Shown here one piece after another: positions 2,841-59,695 of a stretch of 64,000 bases of DNA. A model generated the notes under the pieces. That model worked only from the letters and a program-made list of their open reading frames with translations, was not told the DNA's origin and searched no databases. The DNA comes from a virus (lineage: Duplodnaviria; Caudoviricetes). The stretch lies in the IMG/VR virus record IMGVR_UViG_3300031853_000007, positions 48,311 through 112,310 of that record; one strand, given 5' to 3'. Position numbers and translations under genes: made by a program. How positions within the stretch are numbered: the first letter of the stretch is position 1; the number at the start of each line of letters is the position of its first letter.

Positions 2841-4346
2841 TTAATATTCCTTGTTGATTTCGGCTTCTCTTGTTAATTCACCTGCGTCAGTAAGCTGTTC
2901 GCCTTTTTCCTCTGCCGTAGGTGCGCCACCATCATCACTACCAGATTGAGTGTATGACGTAGCGAGAGGTTCAAATTTGTTTGCCAAATCAAGTACCTCA
3001 TTTTCAAGGAAGGTCATACCAAGCATATCTATCGGATTGATACCAAGAGCGGAGCAAGCCATAGTCTTGGTTGGCAGACTAGCCTGAGCTGCCTTCAAAT
3101 AACCGTTGATTGCTTCTTCCTTGTTATAGAATGTAATGTCTAATAGTTCAATCTTGAATTTGTACCTGCTAAACCGCAGCTTTAACAAGCGGTTGATGTT
3201 GCGCTCAATCTGACGAGACAAATCAAACACCATCTGCATATCCGCCTTAATAGAAACATTAAGAGTTGCAGAGGTTTTATTCTCGTCGCCAAATATAAGC
3301 GAGCTTACACCGGCATCATTCCAAAATGTTTTAATTGAATTATTGACGTTGTTGTTTTCAGAAGTTCCAGTATTCTCGAAACTGAAATCCTTAGAGTCCA
3401 TAGGTGTAAGGAACGCGCCTATGTTTTCGGGAAGAACATCAAGTAAGCCGCTGTAATATTCAAGAAGAATATCGCGGTCAATCAAAAAGTTCCCGTCGTT
3501 ATCAACAGGAACCTTCAATGCAATTACTTTATAGTTGTCAGTTTCGGCTTTGGCTTTCTTTAGGGCTTTGTAATCTTCAATGTCGTATATACCCTCAAAC
3601 ACACCAAGGAATGGTACAACGGGGTATGGGACATCATCCATGAGCTTTACACAGAACTGCCGCTTTGAATCGAGAGTTTGCCACCGCACACCCTCTTCCT
3701 TAAACAATGCAAACCTCTCTTCAAACTCTTCGCCGAAGTATTGTAAATCCTGCGGATAAGTAAGAAAGTACGTGAAGTCGAAGTCGTATAAGAAACAACC
3801 ATCTTCTATACGAGTGACCTTACAGTACTCAGGCGGGAGTTGCTTAATATAAAAGGATTCGTTGGACTCATATATGTATCCGTAGAATATATCTTCCTTA
3901 AAACATATCTTAGCAATCTTAGCCATCTCGTGACGTATATTCATCTTATCGAGATATGCAAGAGTATTGATATAACTCTTCTCATACTCCACCTTATCTA
4001 TTTTACCCCAAACAGAATTGATCTTATAAGGTGAGACAATATAAGAATAGAGGTGCATTGTAGCGAAATAATTTATCAGTCTCTTATAATGAGGGCTAAC
4101 CTGATATAAGTGGCGAGACATCATTCTCAGCTCGTTCTGATAAGTTGCGGGGTTGTTTATCCAATGCGACACCTTGTACTTTGGGTACTTCTTAAAGAAG
4201 TGCAAAGGATTGCGTACACGTATGTAAGGGTCTTTGTTTAAGTCACGAAGTATAATCTGTTTGAGTGCAGAAAACTTACTCAACTGATTAATGACCTCAT
4301 ACCCCGCGCCGTCAGTGCTACTAACGGGAGTAATTAAATCTGACAT
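2841..4346 (-). CDS. Portal protein
   Basis: 501 aa directly downstream of terminase; ends in GGAP(T) motif typical of these portals. Confidence 0.8.
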   Translation of the reverse strand: MSDLITPVSSTDGAGYEVINQLSKFSALKQIILRDLNKDPYIRVRNPLHFFKKYPKYKVSHWINNPATYQNELRMMSRHLYQVSPHYKRLINYFATMHLYSYIVSPYKINSVWGKIDKVEYEKSYINTLAYLDKMNIRHEMAKIAKICFKEDIFYGYIYESNESFYIKQLPPEYCKVTRIEDGCFLYDFDFTYFLTYPQDLQYFGEEFEERFALFKEEGVRWQTLDSKRQFCVKLMDDVPYPVVPFLGVFEGIYDIEDYKALKKAKAETDNYKVIALKVPVDNDGNFLIDRDILLEYYSGLLDVLPENIGAFLTPMDSKDFSFENTGTSENNNVNNSIKTFWNDAGVSSLIFGDENKTSATLNVSIKADMQMVFDLSRQIERNINRLLKLRFSRYKFKIELLDITFYNKEEAINGYLKAAQASLPTKTMACSALGINPIDMLGMTFLENEVLDLANKFEPLATSYTQSGSDDGGAPTAEEKGEQLTDAGELTREAEINKEY

Positions 4347-51191: not shown

Positions 51192-52415
51192 GTGGGAAAA
51201 GAATACGCAAATTATCATAAGCACGACCATGTGTCGAGTATTATGACACCCGATACACACATCAAAGCGGAAGAATATATACTAAGAGCAAAAGAACTTG
51301 GACATTCGGCGTACTTCACCACCAATCACGGTACTGGCGGAGACATATTTGAAGCAAAGACATTGTGTGATAAGTATGGTTTGCGGTGTATTTACGGAAT
51401 CGAGGGGTATATAGTCCCTGATCCACTAGAGAAAGATAACCGTAACTACCATATTATAATAGTCCCCCGAACCAATCAAGCGAGAAAGAAACTTAATCTT
51501 GTTACGTCAAGGGCGAGTGAAGAAGGGTTTTATTATAAACCACGAATCTTCATTGAGGATTTGCTTAACCTCGAACCCGAAGATTATTACCTGACGACAG
51601 CTTGTGTGGCGGGGTTACTTAAAGACGAGGATAGCTTCGAGAATCTCTTTTCACCGTTAGCTAATCACTTTGGCAAGAATATGTTGCTTGAAGTTCAGTC
51701 TCACGATAACGATACTCAGCGAGAGATTAACAAAAAGTGTTTGGCTTTACGAAAGGCGGGCTACAGACTGGTAGCTGCTAACGATAGTCATTACATTTAT
51801 CCAGAGCAGTCGGCGGAGAGAGACGAATATCTTAAAGGTAAGGGTATTAGTTATCCCGATGAAGAGGAGTTTATTCTTGACTATCCTGATTACGACACGA
51901 TGGTTCAGCGGTTCAAAAAACAAGGAGTTTTGAGCGAAGAGCAAATAATCGAAGCGATTGACAATACAATGTTGTTCTTGGATTGCGAAGATATTTACCT
52001 CGACAAAGAGATAAAGATGCCGACGATATATCCTGATTTGACTACAGAAGAAAAGATAACTGAGTTAAAGAGACACATCAATAAGGCATTTGCCAAGGTA
52101 AAAGAAAGTGATAGTATCCCCAAGGAAAGAATTCCCGAATACATAAAGGAAATCAAATATGAGATGGATATTATCGAAAAGACCGCAGAGGTTCGTTCGG
52201 TTGATTATTTTTTGCTTAATGAAAAGATAGTTGATTTGGCGGTTAACAAATATGGCGGTGTCCTTACCAGAACGGGACGAGGAAGTTGTGGTTCGTTCTA
52301 TACAAACAGAATCCTTGGAATGACACAGCTTGATAGACTCAACGCTCCTGTTGTAATGTATCCTGATAGATTTATGTCTACAGCAAGACTCTTGGAAAAT
52401 AGAGCATTACCTGAT
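51192..52415 (+). CDS. dnaE: DNA polymerase III alpha, exon 1 (PHP domain)
   Basis: YHKHD, TNHG, NDSHY, GRGS; ends at LPD. Confidence 0.92.
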
Positions 52416-52752
52416 AAATCATTGTCCCATTATACGGCGACGTATGATGCGTATGTGGTGAACCCAGACATCTGGGGTGTTTATCTTACGAATAGTAATC
52501 ACAGGAAATGGTGATGAAAAGATAAGCTAACAGGGAAACCTTCATCGAAAGATATGGCAATCCTGTGCTGAGATCATTTTGGTTTTAGTTCAACGACTAT
52601 TCCTTTGGTGGTGAAACTCCACAATAGAAGTAGGGGCGAGGTGAAATTCCTCGCTAGGTGAAAACCCTTTAAATCGAAGTACCACACAACTCACTGAGTT
52701 GATGATATAGTCTAATCCCCTAATAAATATCGGGAAACCGAGGGTGTTAATG
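52416..52752 (+). ncRNA. Group I intron (337 nt, no ORF) in dnaE
   Basis: P AACAGGGAAAC, Q AATCCTGTGC, R TTCAACGACTAT, S GATATAGTCT; terminal G; splicing gives catalytic PDIDFN. Confidence 0.92.
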
Positions 52753-54624
52753 ATTGATTTTAATATTGTAGACCAAGAGCCGTTTGCGGCGGCTAGTAGA
52801 GAATTACTAGGACAACATAGCTGTTATCCTATGGTTGCCTACGGTTCCATGCAGTTATCGGAAGCGTTTCGTAACATATGTAGATCGGCTCAAATCCCAT
52901 ATGATGAATACAATGAAGTAGCTAAAGACCTTGAAAGTTACGCAGAGGATAAGAAGTGGAAATCGTATATTGATAAAGCAAAGAGATTTGTCGGCAGTAT
53001 AGTCTCTGCTTCGCCCCATGCGTGTGCGTTTGTTCTTGACAACAAGGATTTACGCGAAGAATACGGTGTAGTTCGTATCGGCGAAGCCCTTTGCGTTATG
53101 GTTACATCAGTTGAAGCCGATGAATATAAGCTCCTTAAAGATGATTTCCTTATTGTTTCTTGTTGGAAGTTAATCTCGGACACGTTCAAAATGATAGGTA
53201 TTCCTATTATGACGATTCAAGAAATTGAACAGCAATCAGATGATAAAGTCTGGAGTATGTACGAACTCGGTATGACGGCGACACTTAATCAGGTTGACGG
53301 CGAGTGGGCGACAGGACTCATTCAGGAGTATAAACCCAAAAACCTGCAAGAACTCTCCATGTTTGTCGCTTGTCTGCGCCCGTTCTTTAACTCAAATCGT
53401 GATGAATTTATTGCTCGTAAAGTACACTCTACTGGTAGTAAGCACCTTGACGAGATACTGAAAGATACCAATGGATATATATTATTCCAAGAGTCACTGA
53501 TGAAATACTTCGAGTGGCTCGGGGTATCCCCTGCGGAATCTATCGGGCTTATAAAGAAGATAAGTAAGAAGAAGATTCATCAAGAGGATTTCGACAACTT
53601 AACTGAAAGACTGCGGAAACAGTGGATAATCAACACTGGGTCTGAGGATAAGTTCGACGAGACTTTCGCTGACATCCAGTCTTGTATGTCTTACGGATTC
53701 GCCGCACCTCATGCTCTGGCGGTAGCAATCGACAGTCTATATGGTGCTTATCTCAAGATACATTATTCGATGGAATACTACACGGTTTGTTTGAATCTTT
53801 ATGGAACGAATCAAGATAAGACACGACGACTTACAAAGGAACTTGATTACTTCGGAATCAAAGTTGTTTCGCCGAAGTTTAGATATTCGGGCGCGACTTA
53901 TGTACCCGATAAAGAATCGAAGTGTATATATAAAGGTATCGCTTCAATCAAGTATGTCAACAAGAAAGTGGCGGATATCTTGTACTCTATGCGTAACGAA
54001 AAGTTCGATTCGTTTGTGGACTTCTTAAAGGTTAATCCGTGTGACGATAGGCAGACTCGGGTACTAATTAAGTTGAATTTCTTCTCTGAGTTTGGTAAAA
54101 GAAAGAAGCTTTTAGCTGTTTACGACACATACAAAGAGTATGGTGGTAGAAAACAAATCAACAAAGAGAACATACACTCTAAGTTAACATACGATATAAT
54201 TGCTAAGTTTTCAAAGGAAACCAATAAACAATTCCGCGAGATACAGTCTGATAAGCTGATTAACGCTTTGTGTAAGATTATCCCTGACGAGGATTTAACC
54301 CTGTCAGAAATACTCGAAGCTCAGATTGAGTATCTCGGTTACATTGAATATGTGAATCCCGCGATGAAAAAGACAGTTGTTATCCTGACGGAGAATCTAA
54401 AACACGCTCCGAGGTTGACTATCTATTCATTAGCAAAGGGAATTACATCTGAGGTACGAATGAAAAAGCGATTGTATCAGTCGAAGAAACTAAAGGTTGG
54501 GTCTATCTTTAGAGTTAATAAAGACGAAGTAAGACCTAGAATGAGATATGTGAACGGCGATTATGAGCCGATTCCCGATACGAAAGAATACTGGATTGAA
54601 GATTTGGGGGTGATAAAATGTTAG
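52753..54624 (+). CDS. dnaE: DNA polymerase III alpha, exon 2
   Basis: IDFN, HACA, KDDFL, FQE, YGF..PHA. Confidence 0.92.
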   Translation: MDFNIVDQEPFAAASRELLGQHSCYPMVAYGSMQLSEAFRNICRSAQIPYDEYNEVAKDLESYAEDKKWKSYIDKAKRFVGSIVSASPHACAFVLDNKDLREEYGVVRIGEALCVMVTSVEADEYKLLKDDFLIVSCWKLISDTFKMIGIPIMTIQEIEQQSDDKVWSMYELGMTATLNQVDGEWATGLIQEYKPKNLQELSMFVACLRPFFNSNRDEFIARKVHSTGSKHLDEILKDTNGYILFQESLMKYFEWLGVSPAESIGLIKKISKKKIHQEDFDNLTERLRKQWIINTGSEDKFDETFADIQSCMSYGFAAPHALAVAIDSLYGAYLKIHYSMEYYTVCLNLYGTNQDKTRRLTKELDYFGIKVVSPKFRYSGATYVPDKESKCIYKGIASIKYVNKKVADILYSMRNEKFDSFVDFLKVNPCDDRQTRVLIKLNFFSEFGKRKKLLAVYDTYKEYGGRKQINKENIHSKLTYDIIAKFSKETNKQFREIQSDKLINALCKIIPDEDLTLSEILEAQIEYLGYIEYVNPAMKKTVVILTENLKHAPRLTIYSLAKGITSEVRMKKRLYQSKKLKVGSIFRVNKDEVRPRMRYVNGDYEPIPDTKEYWIEDLGVIKC

Positions 54625-55826: not shown

Positions 55827-56597
55827 ATGAAGAGTAGAGTGATAAGTCAGTTACTTATTCTATGTTTTGCTTTTGTGACAGTTGTTGCAATCGCCGATAC
55901 AAAGGATAAGGAAACCTACAAAAACAGGATTGGTATTCAACCAGAAAAGCCCGTTACATATTTTACATCGGACATGATAAACTCTAGCAGCTTAACGGAA
56001 GTTTACGAAACTCTTCCTGTATCTGCGGTAACTGAACCCGACTCCAATTCAAACGAAATTCTGCAAGTTAAGAATATTACAGAAGTTGTTTTTGACACTA
56101 CCAATGAAACAGCAGAATCAATTATTGAAGTTCCTGTTGAGGTTGTAGAGTCCGCAAGTGAGTCTTGTGAAAGTTTGCCAATACCAAGTGGAGATACATC
56201 TTTTCATATGTTTATGGACTTTAGAGCTTTAACCAACACAGCAAGCAAACAGTGGGAATTACAGCAAAATGCGTGGACTGATTCAGACGGTTTCCGTAGA
56301 ATAGGCGATGATTATTGCGTGGCTCTTGGAACTGTCTACGGTGAGATCGGTGATAGATTCATAATTATAACTGACGAGGAAAATACATATACGGCTATTA
56401 TGAGCGATGTCAAAGGAACTGATGCGGTGTTTTATGACGGCGTTCACTCTTGGTATCATTACGCAGGAAATGGCTGTAACGTGGTTGAATTTATAGTACA
56501 AACAGAATATCTTCCGAGTGCGGTTACTATAAGCGGTAGCTGTGGTGCAGTAGATTATTTGAGTGGAAATATTGTAAGTATAGAAAGGATAGATTGA
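55827..56597 (+). CDS. Secreted/anchored protein with possible 3D-like cell-wall domain
   Basis: N-terminal hydrophobic segment; YCVALG..YG.IGD, D.K, VVEFIV. Confidence 0.55.
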   Translation: MKSRVISQLLILCFAFVTVVAIADTKDKETYKNRIGIQPEKPVTYFTSDMINSSSLTEVYETLPVSAVTEPDSNSNEILQVKNITEVVFDTTNETAESIIEVPVEVVESASESCESLPIPSGDTSFHMFMDFRALTNTASKQWELQQNAWTDSDGFRRIGDDYCVALGTVYGEIGDRFIIITDEENTYTAIMSDVKGTDAVFYDGVHSWYHYAGNGCNVVEFIVQTEYLPSAVTISGSCGAVDYLSGNIVSIERID

Positions 56598-56600
56598 AAG

Positions 56601-57626
56601 TTGGAAAGAGTTAAGTTATCGGTTAACGAACTGTTCAGTGGTATAGGAAATCAGGTTAGAGGCATCAGAGACACCAATCTTTTTGATGTGACAGTAGCGT
56701 GTACTTCTGATATTGACAAAGATGTAATGGTTTCATATGCAGCTATTCATAACGGTTTGACCAATGAAATGATTGAGAGTTATTCAGACTACCCAAGTAG
56801 GGAGCGAATGGCACAGGATTTGCTTGATAGAAAGATAGGGTATGATTTCAAGAATAACAAGCCTTATGATTGGAATAAGAAAGCAAGAAGCAAAAGCAAA
56901 TACCTTGAAAAGTGTTGGCTTGCCATGAAGTTGTCAAACAATCTTGGAGATATAAGCGGCATTGAAGAATTACCATATGCTGATCTGTGGACAGTTTCGT
57001 TTTGTTGCCAAGACATATCTGTCGCGGGCAATTTGAAGGGGTTTGAAGAAAATAGTGGAACAAGAAGTTCTCTTGTTTGGCAGCAGATAAGACTTCTTAG
57101 AAATTCAATCGCCAAGAATGAAGCTCCTAAGTATATTATGTTCGAGAATGTGAAGAATCTTGTGGGCAAAAAGTTTAAACAAGAATTTGATAGGTTAGTC
57201 AACGTTCTTGATGAACTTGGGTATACAACTTATTGGGAAATCCTCAACGCTAAGAATTGCGGTATTCCTCAGAATCGTGAAAGAGTCTTTGCAATCTGTA
57301 TTCGTAAGGATATAGACACAGGTAAAATGACTTTTCCAAAACCTTTCGATAATGGTCTTAGACTTAAAGATGTTCTTGATGATGTAGTAGATGAAAAGTA
57401 TTACATAAACAATGACAAGGCAGATGAGCTAATAGACGAGCTTATAGAAAATGGAACATTGTCCGAGGAAACATATCCTGTTGCTTCAAGAGGTAGATAT
57501 ACAGATGATAATTCTACTGAGCAGAATATTGAAGTAAGAACCGAAAGTGTCGCAAACGCATTGACTACTGTTCAAAAGGACAGTATGTGTTTAAAATGCA
57601 GCGCACCGAACAGGGTAAGTCGCTGA
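56601..57626 (+). CDS. C5 DNA methyltransferase, N-terminal part (motifs I-VIII plus first TRD-like module)
   Basis: ELFSGIG, SFCCQD (PC variant), ENVKNL, PQNRERVF. Confidence 0.92.
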   Translation: MERVKLSVNELFSGIGNQVRGIRDTNLFDVTVACTSDIDKDVMVSYAAIHNGLTNEMIESYSDYPSRERMAQDLLDRKIGYDFKNNKPYDWNKKARSKSKYLEKCWLAMKLSNNLGDISGIEELPYADLWTVSFCCQDISVAGNLKGFEENSGTRSSLVWQQIRLLRNSIAKNEAPKYIMFENVKNLVGKKFKQEFDRLVNVLDELGYTTYWEILNAKNCGIPQNRERVFAICIRKDIDTGKMTFPKPFDNGLRLKDVLDDVVDEKYYINNDKADELIDELIENGTLSEETYPVASRGRYTDDNSTEQNIEVRTESVANALTTVQKDSMCLKCSAPNRVSR

Positions 57627-58656
57627 GAAAAGCATATGAGTCACATGAAATAAAGCATGGTTTCAATGAATATCGAGAACCCGTTTTGAGAAATGATGGT
57701 ATGACAAACACAATTTCAACAGTTCAGAAAGATAACTTGTTAGTAGAGTGTAATGGGGGGGGGCAGTTGCAACTCCCAATCGACCTCACACTTAACGCTC
57801 CAAGAGCAATCGACCGAGCAAACTGTATCAAGGCAAGATACGATGCCGGAATCTCGAATTTCAGGCAAGACGGTACCGGTGTTATTGAGTTGCAAAGGAA
57901 CAAAGTTTGAGAAATTTGTTGAGTTTTGCTCTACCCTTATGGCGAGAGATTTCAAGGGATTCGGGAACCAGTCAATGACAGGAGTGATAACAAATGACTC
58001 AAAAGATAAATGACTCTACCGATTCAGTAATATTGGGGAGACTTATCCCCAAGAGCAACAAGATACATCAAAACCAAGAGGTATTATCTATTTGTGGGGT
58101 GGGAATAACTTTGAAATCAACAGATTATAAAAATCCTCCTAAAATTCTTGTTTTATGCGATATGGAAGTGGGGGGGCAGCGTGGAAGAGTGTTTAGTAAT
58201 CAAGGAATAATAGGAGCGTTGTCAGCGACTGACTGGAAGGATGCTCCTAAGTGTGTTGTAAAAGAAATAGTAAAGAAAGATGATAATGAGTAGTCCATAT
58301 GATCTACTTTCTCCAGATGATGATGAAAATTATGTAAGAGTAAGACAAGCAACAAAGACTGGTTATATACTCTGTCCTATAAATGGTGTGGCTGACTTAT
58401 CATTTCCATCGAGCAAGCTACGCCGAGGACGAGTTCAAGGTGGGGGGGGGCATAGCTCCTACCATAATGGCAAGTGGTAATTGCTGTTTGTATAGAATTG
58501 AGAGAGTTGAGGATAATAATGAATCAAAACAAACCTAATATTCTTGGGACAATATACGATACCAAATGTGACAATGCTTTTGCGGCAGGACATGGTGCCG
58601 TATATGATCCACAGAATATAGCACCGACTTTAGTAACCGCAACGGGGGGGCAATAA
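57587..58656 (+). CDS. Array of short overlapping ORFs encoding methyltransferase TRD-like modules
   Basis: TNTISTVQKD, ANCIKARYDAG, CSTLMARDFKG, ITLKSTDYKNPPK, GALSATDWKDAPK, RRGRVQ..IAPTI, IAPTLVTATGG. Confidence 0.75.
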
Positions 58657-58942
58657 GCCAATGAGTATTGATAAGAAGAAATTTAGAATAAGGAAACTTA
58701 CGCCCACAGAATGTTTAAGACTGATGAGCGTTCCTGATGAAGATATTCAGAAAGTTAAAGATATAGGAATGTCCGATAGTCAGATGTACAAACAGGCAGG
58801 AAACAGTTTGGTTAGTAATTGCGTTGAGCTGATTTTTGAGCATCTTTTCAAAGCTCAGTATCAAGATGATTTTAAGTGTTATGACGAAAATTTTCAGTAA
58901 ACCCCACAGATCATAATGAAAGTTCTGCCCTAAGTGGGGGGG
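57755..58942 (+). repeat. Five poly-G tracts, each followed by CA (G9 57755, G7 58170, G9 58442, G7 58644, G7 58936)
   Basis: Read directly from the sequence. Confidence 0.9.
58661..58900 (+). CDS. C5 DNA methyltransferase, C-terminal part (motifs IX-X)
   Basis: RIRKLTPTECLRLM, YKQAGNS. Confidence 0.9.
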   Translation: MSIDKKKFRIRKLTPTECLRLMSVPDEDIQKVKDIGMSDSQMYKQAGNSLVSNCVELIFEHLFKAQYQDDFKCYDENFQ

Positions 58943-59209
58943 CAACACCAATCGCTGTATACAAGCAGGCAGTCTTGACTTCGGCAAATGGAGTAAGATG
59001 CACGAAAGCAGCAGAAGATATTATAGCACACATGGAGTTGCACCAACACAGCACACCTGTGGTGGTGGAAATATCGAGAGTAAGATAATTGAGGATAATG
59101 AATAGCGATTGTTTTGGGTCTAGCTGCAATAATCACTTGTGGCATCGTAGATCTTATAGATACTATTGGTTCTGCACAACACGACAATAATAAGAAAAGG
59201 GGTAATTAA

Positions 59210-59695
59210 ATGCTCTATCCGGCACAGCTATATAAGGAAGAGCTTAATAAGAAACTGATTTCTTGCTGGTATCTTCCGAAGTACAAGCACTATTTTGGCG
59301 GTGAGTATTCTGTTCGACAGTTAGAGAACAATGCTTACTGGCATAGAGATTTTGTTCATCTGAACAGCAAGGGCGAGATTGACGGCTACATTGGCTACAA
59401 TTATAACGATATAAACCGTTCGATCAACGGCGTGACTCTAATAGGTTTTGCCGATAATAACATGGTATTTATTAAGGACGTTATTAACCATGTGCAGGAA
59501 ATGTTCGATTCTGGCGCAAGACGTATTGAGTTTTACGCCTTCGCTAACAATCCTGCTGTTAGATTGTACGATAAGTTCATTAACAGATATGGTGGGCGAA
59601 AGGTTGGAACACTAACTGAATCGGCTTGGTATGACGGTAAGTTTCACGATTGTTATATCTATGAAATTATGAATTTGAAAGAGGGTAATAAGTAA
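59210..59695 (+). CDS. GNAT-family acetyltransferase
   Basis: NNPAVRLY, GG..VG.L, DGKFHD..IYEI (RimL/RimJ-like). Confidence 0.75.
   Translation: MLYPAQLYKEELNKKLISCWYLPKYKHYFGGEYSVRQLENNAYWHRDFVHLNSKGEIDGYIGYNYNDINRSINGVTLIGFADNNMVFIKDVINHVQEMFDSGARRIEFYAFANNPAVRLYDKFINRYGGRKVGTLTESAWYDGKFHDCYIYEIMNLKEGNK

Follow-up and report, generated by a model that had tools for sequence, protein, structure and literature searches.

The methyltransferase gene described here probably ends in a two-step arrangement in which −1 ribosomal frameshifting is followed by a poly-G phase switch, and we favour this as the best reading for the lineage. The window, by which we mean the whole stretch of DNA that was analysed, makes up the 64 kb at the right end of a virus contig of 112 kb in IMG/VR with a completeness estimate of 96%, and the public runs that contain its sequence are bovine gut or rumen metagenomes. 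Comparison with related loci makes it rather likely that the site derives, in a form specific to this lineage, from a conserved −1 cassette, which ends many gut-phage genes for multispecific C5 methyltransferases. The extension in question is a further target-recognition module (TRD), an exchangeable DNA-specificity module that would be appended past motif X. The features concerned, in the coordinates of the window, are the following.

56601–57626, + strand: N-terminal catalytic part of the methyltransferase, motifs I–VIII (PF00145, E 6e-45 over 56601–57623).
58661–58900, + strand: zero-frame ORF of 79 aa with C5 cytosine methyltransferase motifs IX–X, ending ...DENFQ and TAA (PF00145, translation).
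58885–59088, + strand: −1 frame as sequenced, 67 codons, start-less; an unselected frame past the G7 tract (translation).
58888–58894, + strand: slippery heptamer A_AAT_TTT, in phase, of the form X_XXY_YYZ, with zero-frame codons AAT TTT.
58895–58901, + strand: spacer of 7 nt that includes the zero-frame stop codon (sequence, fold).
58902–58939, + strand: putative stimulatory hairpin with 5' arm CCCCACAG, 3' arm CT..GTGGGG and a large loop (RNAfold).
58936–58942, + strand: poly-G tract G7, which putatively gates the passage from the −1 frame into the TRD module (allele comparison).
58944–59105, + strand: last TRD module, with its frame open from 58920 and its stop TAG at 59103–59105 (homology, dN/dS).

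Motifs I–VIII and IX–X of a C-5 cytosine DNA methyltransferase (PF00145) are both present in the window, in separate ORFs and frames. The motif IX–X ORF matches profile positions 271–324 with an E-value of 2.3e-9 (58661–58897). Upstream of this ORF, the methyltransferase gene consists of pieces in different frames, three in all, and the tandem TRD-like modules lie in three different frames with stops and G tracts between them. The gene is likewise fragmented over three frames in the relative L002. Since the gene is broken into frames upstream, the motif IX–X ORF of this allele may or may not be part of an active enzyme. The SPR/phi3T type of enzyme has several tandem TRDs within a single polypeptide, placed between motifs VIII and IX; this arrangement is not found in the window gene but is found in the related loci L003 and L215–L218. 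The remaining genes of the window are long intact ORFs. A blastn search of the locus against GenBank phages gave no match.

The zero frame ends with GAA AAT TTT CAG TAA, where the stop codon occupies positions 58898–58900, and an in-phase A_AAT_TTT one codon before the stop is thus present as the sequence-only reading had claimed. The same reading had stated that the −1 frame is open to the tract and that an eighth G would lead it into a module lacking its own start, and translation confirmed both statements. The −1 frame opens directly after a TGA (58882–58884), contains no ATG, GTG or TTG before the G tract, crosses the tract and ends with a TAA at 59086–59088; its 67 codons are not TRD-like, and past the tract they do not resemble protein sequence. 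One added G joins it to the frame of the TRD-like module, which is open from 58920 to 59105 and has an internal ATG at 58998 as its only start-type codon. The linker between heptamer and tract has no stops in three of three contigs (window, L135 and L157). An open and start-less −1 frame that encodes a conserved extension is fully present in the G8 allele of L157 and in L002 and L003; in the window, with G7, it is open and start-less but enters a frame that is not under selection. As the heptamer encodes the conserved residues E-N-F, its presence in the window lineage might also be due to descent alone.

Downstream of the heptamer, RNAfold pairs CCCCAC (58902–58907) with GTGGGG (58934–58939), with inner pairs AG/CT or CAGA/TCTG. 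Both the stem, which starts 7 nt past the heptamer, and the proposed participation of the G tract in it are therefore seen in the predicted fold: four of the seven Gs of the tract, the first four, lie within the stem and form its 3' arm. The energy of the window fold is −13.2 kcal/mol (about −11 for the hairpin alone). Dinucleotide shuffles in which the runs of C and G are preserved fold equally well (z −0.11), and the stem alone is therefore not beyond chance; the conservation among relatives, described below, is. The hairpins of the window, L135 and L157 are 38–41 nt long and have energies of −10 to −12.5 kcal/mol (−11 to −13 kcal/mol for that of the window). A search of positions 56500–59400 against Rfam yielded no family. 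The hairpin was also considered as a transcription terminator; this was dropped, as a terminator scan gave no terminator-like site there.

The N- and C-terminal portions of the enzyme served as queries against collections of viral, metagenome and genome sequences, and the many related methyltransferase loci thus obtained belong to gut phages and to prophages within MAGs of Clostridia, Eubacteriales and Lachnospiraceae. The sequence-only reading had named conservation of GAAAATTTT together with the hairpin in homologues as a check, and the outcome was positive: about 15 distinct related loci share one cassette design, which comprises an identical heptamer AAATTTT, a 6-nt spacer and a compact hairpin (L002, L003, L215–L218, L257, L294, L295 with two copies, L296, L297, L300, L338, L381 and L382). 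The identical heptamer occurs at the homologous place in L135 and L157 as well. The family hairpin measures 28 nt, with 11–12 bp and a dG of −13 to −19 kcal/mol, and the zero-frame stop is located in the spacer or in the hairpin loop. In these loci, the −1 frame is open for 41–120 codons, contains recognisable TRD modules and is start-less; the +1 frame is closed within 2–12 codons. Across the loci, the codon preceding AAT encodes E, A, Q or G, but its third base is always A. The heptamer is therefore conserved as nucleotides and not merely as the peptide E-N-F.

The hairpins of the homologues covary. Among ten aligned loci, 98% of the helix cells contain standard pairs, compared to about 40% when the 3' partners are slid by 1–3 columns, and five of the 11 helix pairs have changes on both sides. 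From these ten loci, we trained a covariance model (R1) that consists of the heptamer, the 6-nt spacer and an 11-bp hairpin. Outside the training set, R1 matches the second cassette of L295 with 58 bits, L338 with 56 bits and L002 with 26.5 bits. The hairpins of L002 and L003 are better than shuffles on their own (z −5.9 and −2.3, respectively).

Compared to the family design, the window lineage differs in having its stop one codon past the heptamer, a 7-nt spacer and a looser hairpin. Such a short tail, where the spacer contains the stop, occurs in L381 and L382 too, together with good hairpins and a TRD frame in −1. On the window, R1 scores 13.2 bits and aligns only the heptamer part, compared to 56–75 bits for family members; position and heptamer of the window site are as in the family cassette, whereas its hairpin misfits the model. 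On visual inspection, the 5' arm and the TCTGC with which the 3' arm begins appear homologous to the family hairpin, and it seems that the loop was enlarged and that the GG after the stem was expanded into the poly-G run. Scanning viral contigs for the exact pattern of the window-type cassette gave no further copies, and the cassettes of L383, L376 and L374 are decayed or frame-swapped.

Some family members have further peculiarities. L295 contains two complete cassettes (at 3704 and 3877), which are 173 nt apart, and the second is in phase with the frame that a −1 slip at the first would enter; the pair would be two chained frameshifts that add TRD modules stepwise. L257, L300 and L338 are circularly permuted, with motif I after motif X at the C-terminus, followed by the cassette.

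The module beyond the tract is kept as coding sequence. In its own frame, its dN/dS is 0.07 between the window and L135, which both have G7, and 0.045 between the window and L157; in the other two frames, the values range from 0.9 to 3.4, and in the frame that a −1 slip reads downstream of the tract in the G7 allele, dN/dS exceeds 2. Most substitutions in the module are at third codon positions when it is read in its own frame. From the low dN/dS in this frame, it follows that the module is maintained as coding sequence. A maintained module into which, in most sampled alleles, no frame leads is the signature expected of a phase-variable add-on.

The module resembles TRDs that are part of an enzyme. 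The intact L216 enzyme has an internal TRD, located between motifs VIII and IX, with which the module shares 60% identity over 48 aa. The hallmark TRD dipeptide is PTQ in the window and L135 and PT(I/L) in L157, L136 and L216, a difference that counts against the favoured reading. L136, whose C-terminal domain is 75% identical, has the homologous module fused in frame to motif X, and the fusion region is free of heptamer, stop and G tract. In L218, motif X is followed by an in-frame TRD and then by the cassette, and two to four TRDs lie past motif X in each of the database proteins P0016, P0026, P0029 and P0033, which are single ORFs. Judging from these sequences, TRDs that follow motif X in one polypeptide occur naturally. 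In the favoured reading, such a C-terminal TRD would be active. An AlphaFold2 model of P0026 has a confident catalytic core, and all of its TRD regions, internal and C-terminal, have a pLDDT below 50 and are thus uninformative on whether a C-terminal TRD can dock.

All five runs of at least seven Gs in the 64-kb window lie within the methyltransferase gene, and GGG is the rarest glycine codon, accounting for 10% of glycine codons. These five G7–G9 tracts (57755, 58170, 58442, 58644 and 58936) are situated at or inside TRD modules. We compared tract lengths between consensus contigs of independent assemblies, including the run contigs X2, X3 and X4. At 58936, the window, L135, X2 and X4 have G7, L157 has G8 and X3 has G9. 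G7 and G9 (four and one of the six sampled alleles) both misfit the −1 route; with G8, L157 has a single uninterrupted start-less frame of 71 codons, from the slip site through the whole module. The other tracts vary too: the one at 58170 is G6, G7 or G10, the one at 58442 is G8 or G9, and the one at 58644 is longer by 2 nt in X3 and G10 in L002, where the difference between G7 and G10 leaves the frame relation unchanged. The tracts are thus coding repeats whose length varies between close strains and changes the frame, which is one characteristic of phase-variable (contingency) loci with simple sequence repeats.

Larger changes were also observed around the tracts. L002 lacks 272 bp between the tracts 58170 and 58442, with the junction exactly at a G tract, and has a (GA)6 repeat in place of the first tract. 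In L214 (2500–4200), L173, L174 and L339, seven to eight runs of at least seven Gs extend through TRD arrays of mixed frame, which include modules after motif X; L214 is without the ENF heptamer.

We propose the following mechanism. The hairpin would make ribosomes on the motif IX–X ORF pause over A_AAT_TTT. A fraction of them, presumably given by the efficiency of slipping in the remodelled window copy, would slip back by one base, bypass the TAA two codons on and translate a short linker. The hairpin of this lineage would have had its 3' arm turned into a hypermutable poly-G run, and only a tract of 3n+2 Gs (G8) would bring the TRD module into the frame that is reached by the slip. On G8 alleles, slipped ribosomes would go on into the module, and the enzyme would gain one specificity; with G7 or G9, they would add no more than a junk tail. 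Slippage of the tract in replication, and possibly in transcription, would switch the add-on specificity ON and OFF heritably, probably within a single population, and the frameshift would set the share of enzyme molecules with the module. As only G8 would open the module to slipped ribosomes, the sequenced G7 allele of the window would be OFF.

The suggestion of the sequence-only reading that frameshifting and DNA slippage act in series is supported by the G8 variant L157, by the G7, G8 and G9 alleles and by the purifying selection on the module. The comparative evidence speaks for it in the window as well, with the caveats that the hairpin is weak, remodelled and unmatched by R1 and that the G7 that was sequenced does not yield the TRD. 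More tentative, and in our estimate somewhat short of an even chance, is a two-layer switch of specificity in an anti-restriction enzyme, in which the frameshift sets the fraction of molecules with the module and the hypermutable poly-G tract embedded in the hairpin sets its readability heritably, together with the four further tracts and the inversion that is described below. If true, such a switch would create many methylation repertoires from one locus within a phage population.

The same observations might be explained by a vestigial cassette. The heptamer would then be kept for E-N-F, ribosomes would stop at the TAA, and the last TRD would be a silent spare that stays intact via frequent recombination with active copies and is used only after DNA rearrangement. 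A weak and non-significant window hairpin that the family model does not match would be expected for such a remnant, and recombination is apparent in the mosaic identity to L002, where 99% blocks stand beside 75% blocks, and in the 272-bp module deleted exactly between two G tracts, which indicates that modules move by recombination; cassettes have, in addition, decayed or swapped frames in three relatives. However, the dN/dS of 0.07 is found even between two G7 strains, the −1 route is precisely the one, and the only one, that the G8 allele restores, and the linker between heptamer and tract is stop-free in all three contigs. Moreover, a direct-repeat exchange with the upstream modules would remove motifs IX–X. 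We thus regard a vestigial cassette as rather unlikely. Improbable in our view is a free-standing peptide, made without frameshifting from GTG 58934 (with a G6 or G9 tract) or from ATG 58998. This GTG does stand directly before the tract, three other tracts are likewise preceded by ATG or GTG, X3 carries the required G9, and a GGAG is found 4 nt ahead of ATG 58998 in the window and L135. Yet no Shine-Dalgarno sequence precedes GTG 58934, the GGAG is absent in L157, and a start at ATG 58998 loses half of the module. Relatives have this type of module covalently inside or fused to the enzyme, and we know of no free TRD that works in trans.

That the region is decaying pseudogene debris or a product of homopolymer assembly errors, with nothing programmed, seems highly improbable, even though the whole gene is in three-frame fragments in the window contig and L002 and the source is a metagenome assembly. 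The other genes of the window are long and unbroken, G7 at 58936 recurs in independent assemblies, and the exchange of G7 for G10 at 58644 preserves the frame relation. Strong purifying selection on the module also speaks against debris or error, as does the finding that the G runs use the rarest glycine codon and are confined to the methyltransferase gene. We therefore retain −1 frameshifting followed by a poly-G phase switch as the favoured reading.

The proposed frameshift can be compared to known systems. The E. coli dnaX gene produces tau and gamma by a −1 frameshift at A_AAA_AAG with a downstream hairpin (Flower and McHenry 1990, cited in PMC3711429). As far as that account describes dnaX, the two have in common an X_XXY_YYZ heptamer and, in the proposed mechanism, would also share a stem-loop 6 nt downstream and two products per gene at a fixed ratio; the heptamers differ, and the dnaX shift truncates the protein, whereas here it would extend the protein by a module. 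In contrast to dnaX, we see no evidence here of an upstream SD stimulator, and the putative stimulator contains a mutable repeat. In the lambda G/GT tail-assembly chaperone, a −1 slip at G_GGA_AAG near the 3' end places a C-terminal domain on a minority of the products, and frameshifting of this type is conserved by position across very diverged phages without needing a conserved hairpin. The methyltransferase cassette resembles it as a phage gene in which a −1 slip near the 3' end would append a C-terminal part and in which the position is conserved. It differs in protein family and heptamer, in being chainable (L295) and in that the added part is an exchangeable DNA-specificity module. A nearly identical slippery sequence, A_AAU_UUA, is used by the gag-pol site of Rous sarcoma virus, where tRNA-Asn slips from AAU to AAA in the P site and the stimulator is of the pseudoknot type; the likeness to this eukaryotic retrovirus concerns the chemistry of the heptamer only.

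As for the enzyme, multispecific C5 methyltransferases are known from the Bacillus phages SPR, phi3T, rho11s and H2 (Trautner et al. 1996, EMBO J 15:1434; ref 31 of PMC12707154). These share with the present family one core, several tandem independent TRDs of about 40–60 aa and the logic of phage anti-restriction, and in the classical enzymes, all TRDs are in one frame between motifs VIII and IX. Here, by contrast, extra TRDs past motif X would be reached via recoding, and the modules of the window lie in frames that are separated by poly-G. Phase variation of methylation by simple sequence repeats has been described for Type III mod and Type I hsdS/hsdM phasevarions (PMC7383803, PMC3936762). 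There as here, a coding homopolymer or short repeat changes in length, which toggles (here presumably) a methylation specificity heritably. Phasevarions involve adenine methyltransferases of cellular R-M systems, and the repeat switches the whole enzyme or S subunit, whereas the repeat considered here belongs to a phage C5 enzyme, follows a putative frameshift site and would control no more than an add-on TRD. A literature search for frameshifting in C5 or multispecific methyltransferases found no description.

Multispecific phage methyltransferases shield phage DNA from many host restriction systems simultaneously. If the proposed mechanism is true, gut and rumen phages widen this protection by recoding, such that one gene yields the core enzyme and longer forms with added specificity, and in the window lineage, the mutable repeat makes the add-on a bet-hedging switch. 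This would be a new use of −1 frameshifting, the appending of exchangeable DNA-recognition modules, and a rare case of translational recoding and DNA-level phase variation in series. The likely addition from this window, to judge from its sequence, is a cassette that is gated by a poly-G tract forming part of the stimulatory stem. The cassette is short and portable. Since the appended modules have no start codon, gene finders miss them or call them noise, which has consequences for annotation.

Lastly, we describe other junctions and rearrangements of the gene. A perfect 12-bp inverted repeat, with AAACAAGAATTT at 57177–57188 and its complement at 58142–58153, flanks a 953-bp segment (window 57177–58153) that contains motifs VII–VIII and several TRD modules. 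In the X4 contig and in L136, this segment is inverted, and in L136, both arms of the repeat have matching changes (AAACCCGAATTT and its complement). For these reasons, it looks like an invertible ON/OFF segment within the methyltransferase gene. Among ten neighbouring ORFs, we found none for a recombinase able to drive the inversion.

A second in-phase heptamer, T_TTA_AAA, is present at 57586–57592, where the catalytic ORF meets the next TRD module in the −1 frame. In relatives, the residues homologous to this junction are read in one frame; the window may have a −1 slip site at this point, or it may have lost 1 nt from an A run. All other module junctions, between 57900 and 58660 of the window, require a +1 shift. 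Several of them share the repeated unit GA(G/T)GATAATGA(A/G)TAG, in which an SD-like GAGG, an ATG and the upstream stop overlap, and this unit is retained in L002. We considered stop-dependent +1 frameshifting in the style of prfB or Euplotes for the upstream junctions and rejected it: they have no common P-site codon or spacing, and the tract 58442 splits a TRD mid-module. Ribosome hopping between G tracts was rejected as well; the distances are 200–900 nt, and L002 has a DNA-level deletion instead.

Unusual gene arrangements were also observed elsewhere. In L085–L088, which are circularly permuted relatives too, a single ORF has the order TRD-IX-X-I...VIII, and TRD-like modules in other frames lie on both sides of it. 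The homologue of DNA polymerase III alpha in the window (51192–54624) consists of two ORFs, 51192–52514 and 52744–54624, which are about 230 bp apart. In L294 (about 1600–2900, from a Clostridia MAG), an insertion of about 400 aa is located right after the catalytic PC of motif IV, and its ends look intein-like, with C...HN followed by C.
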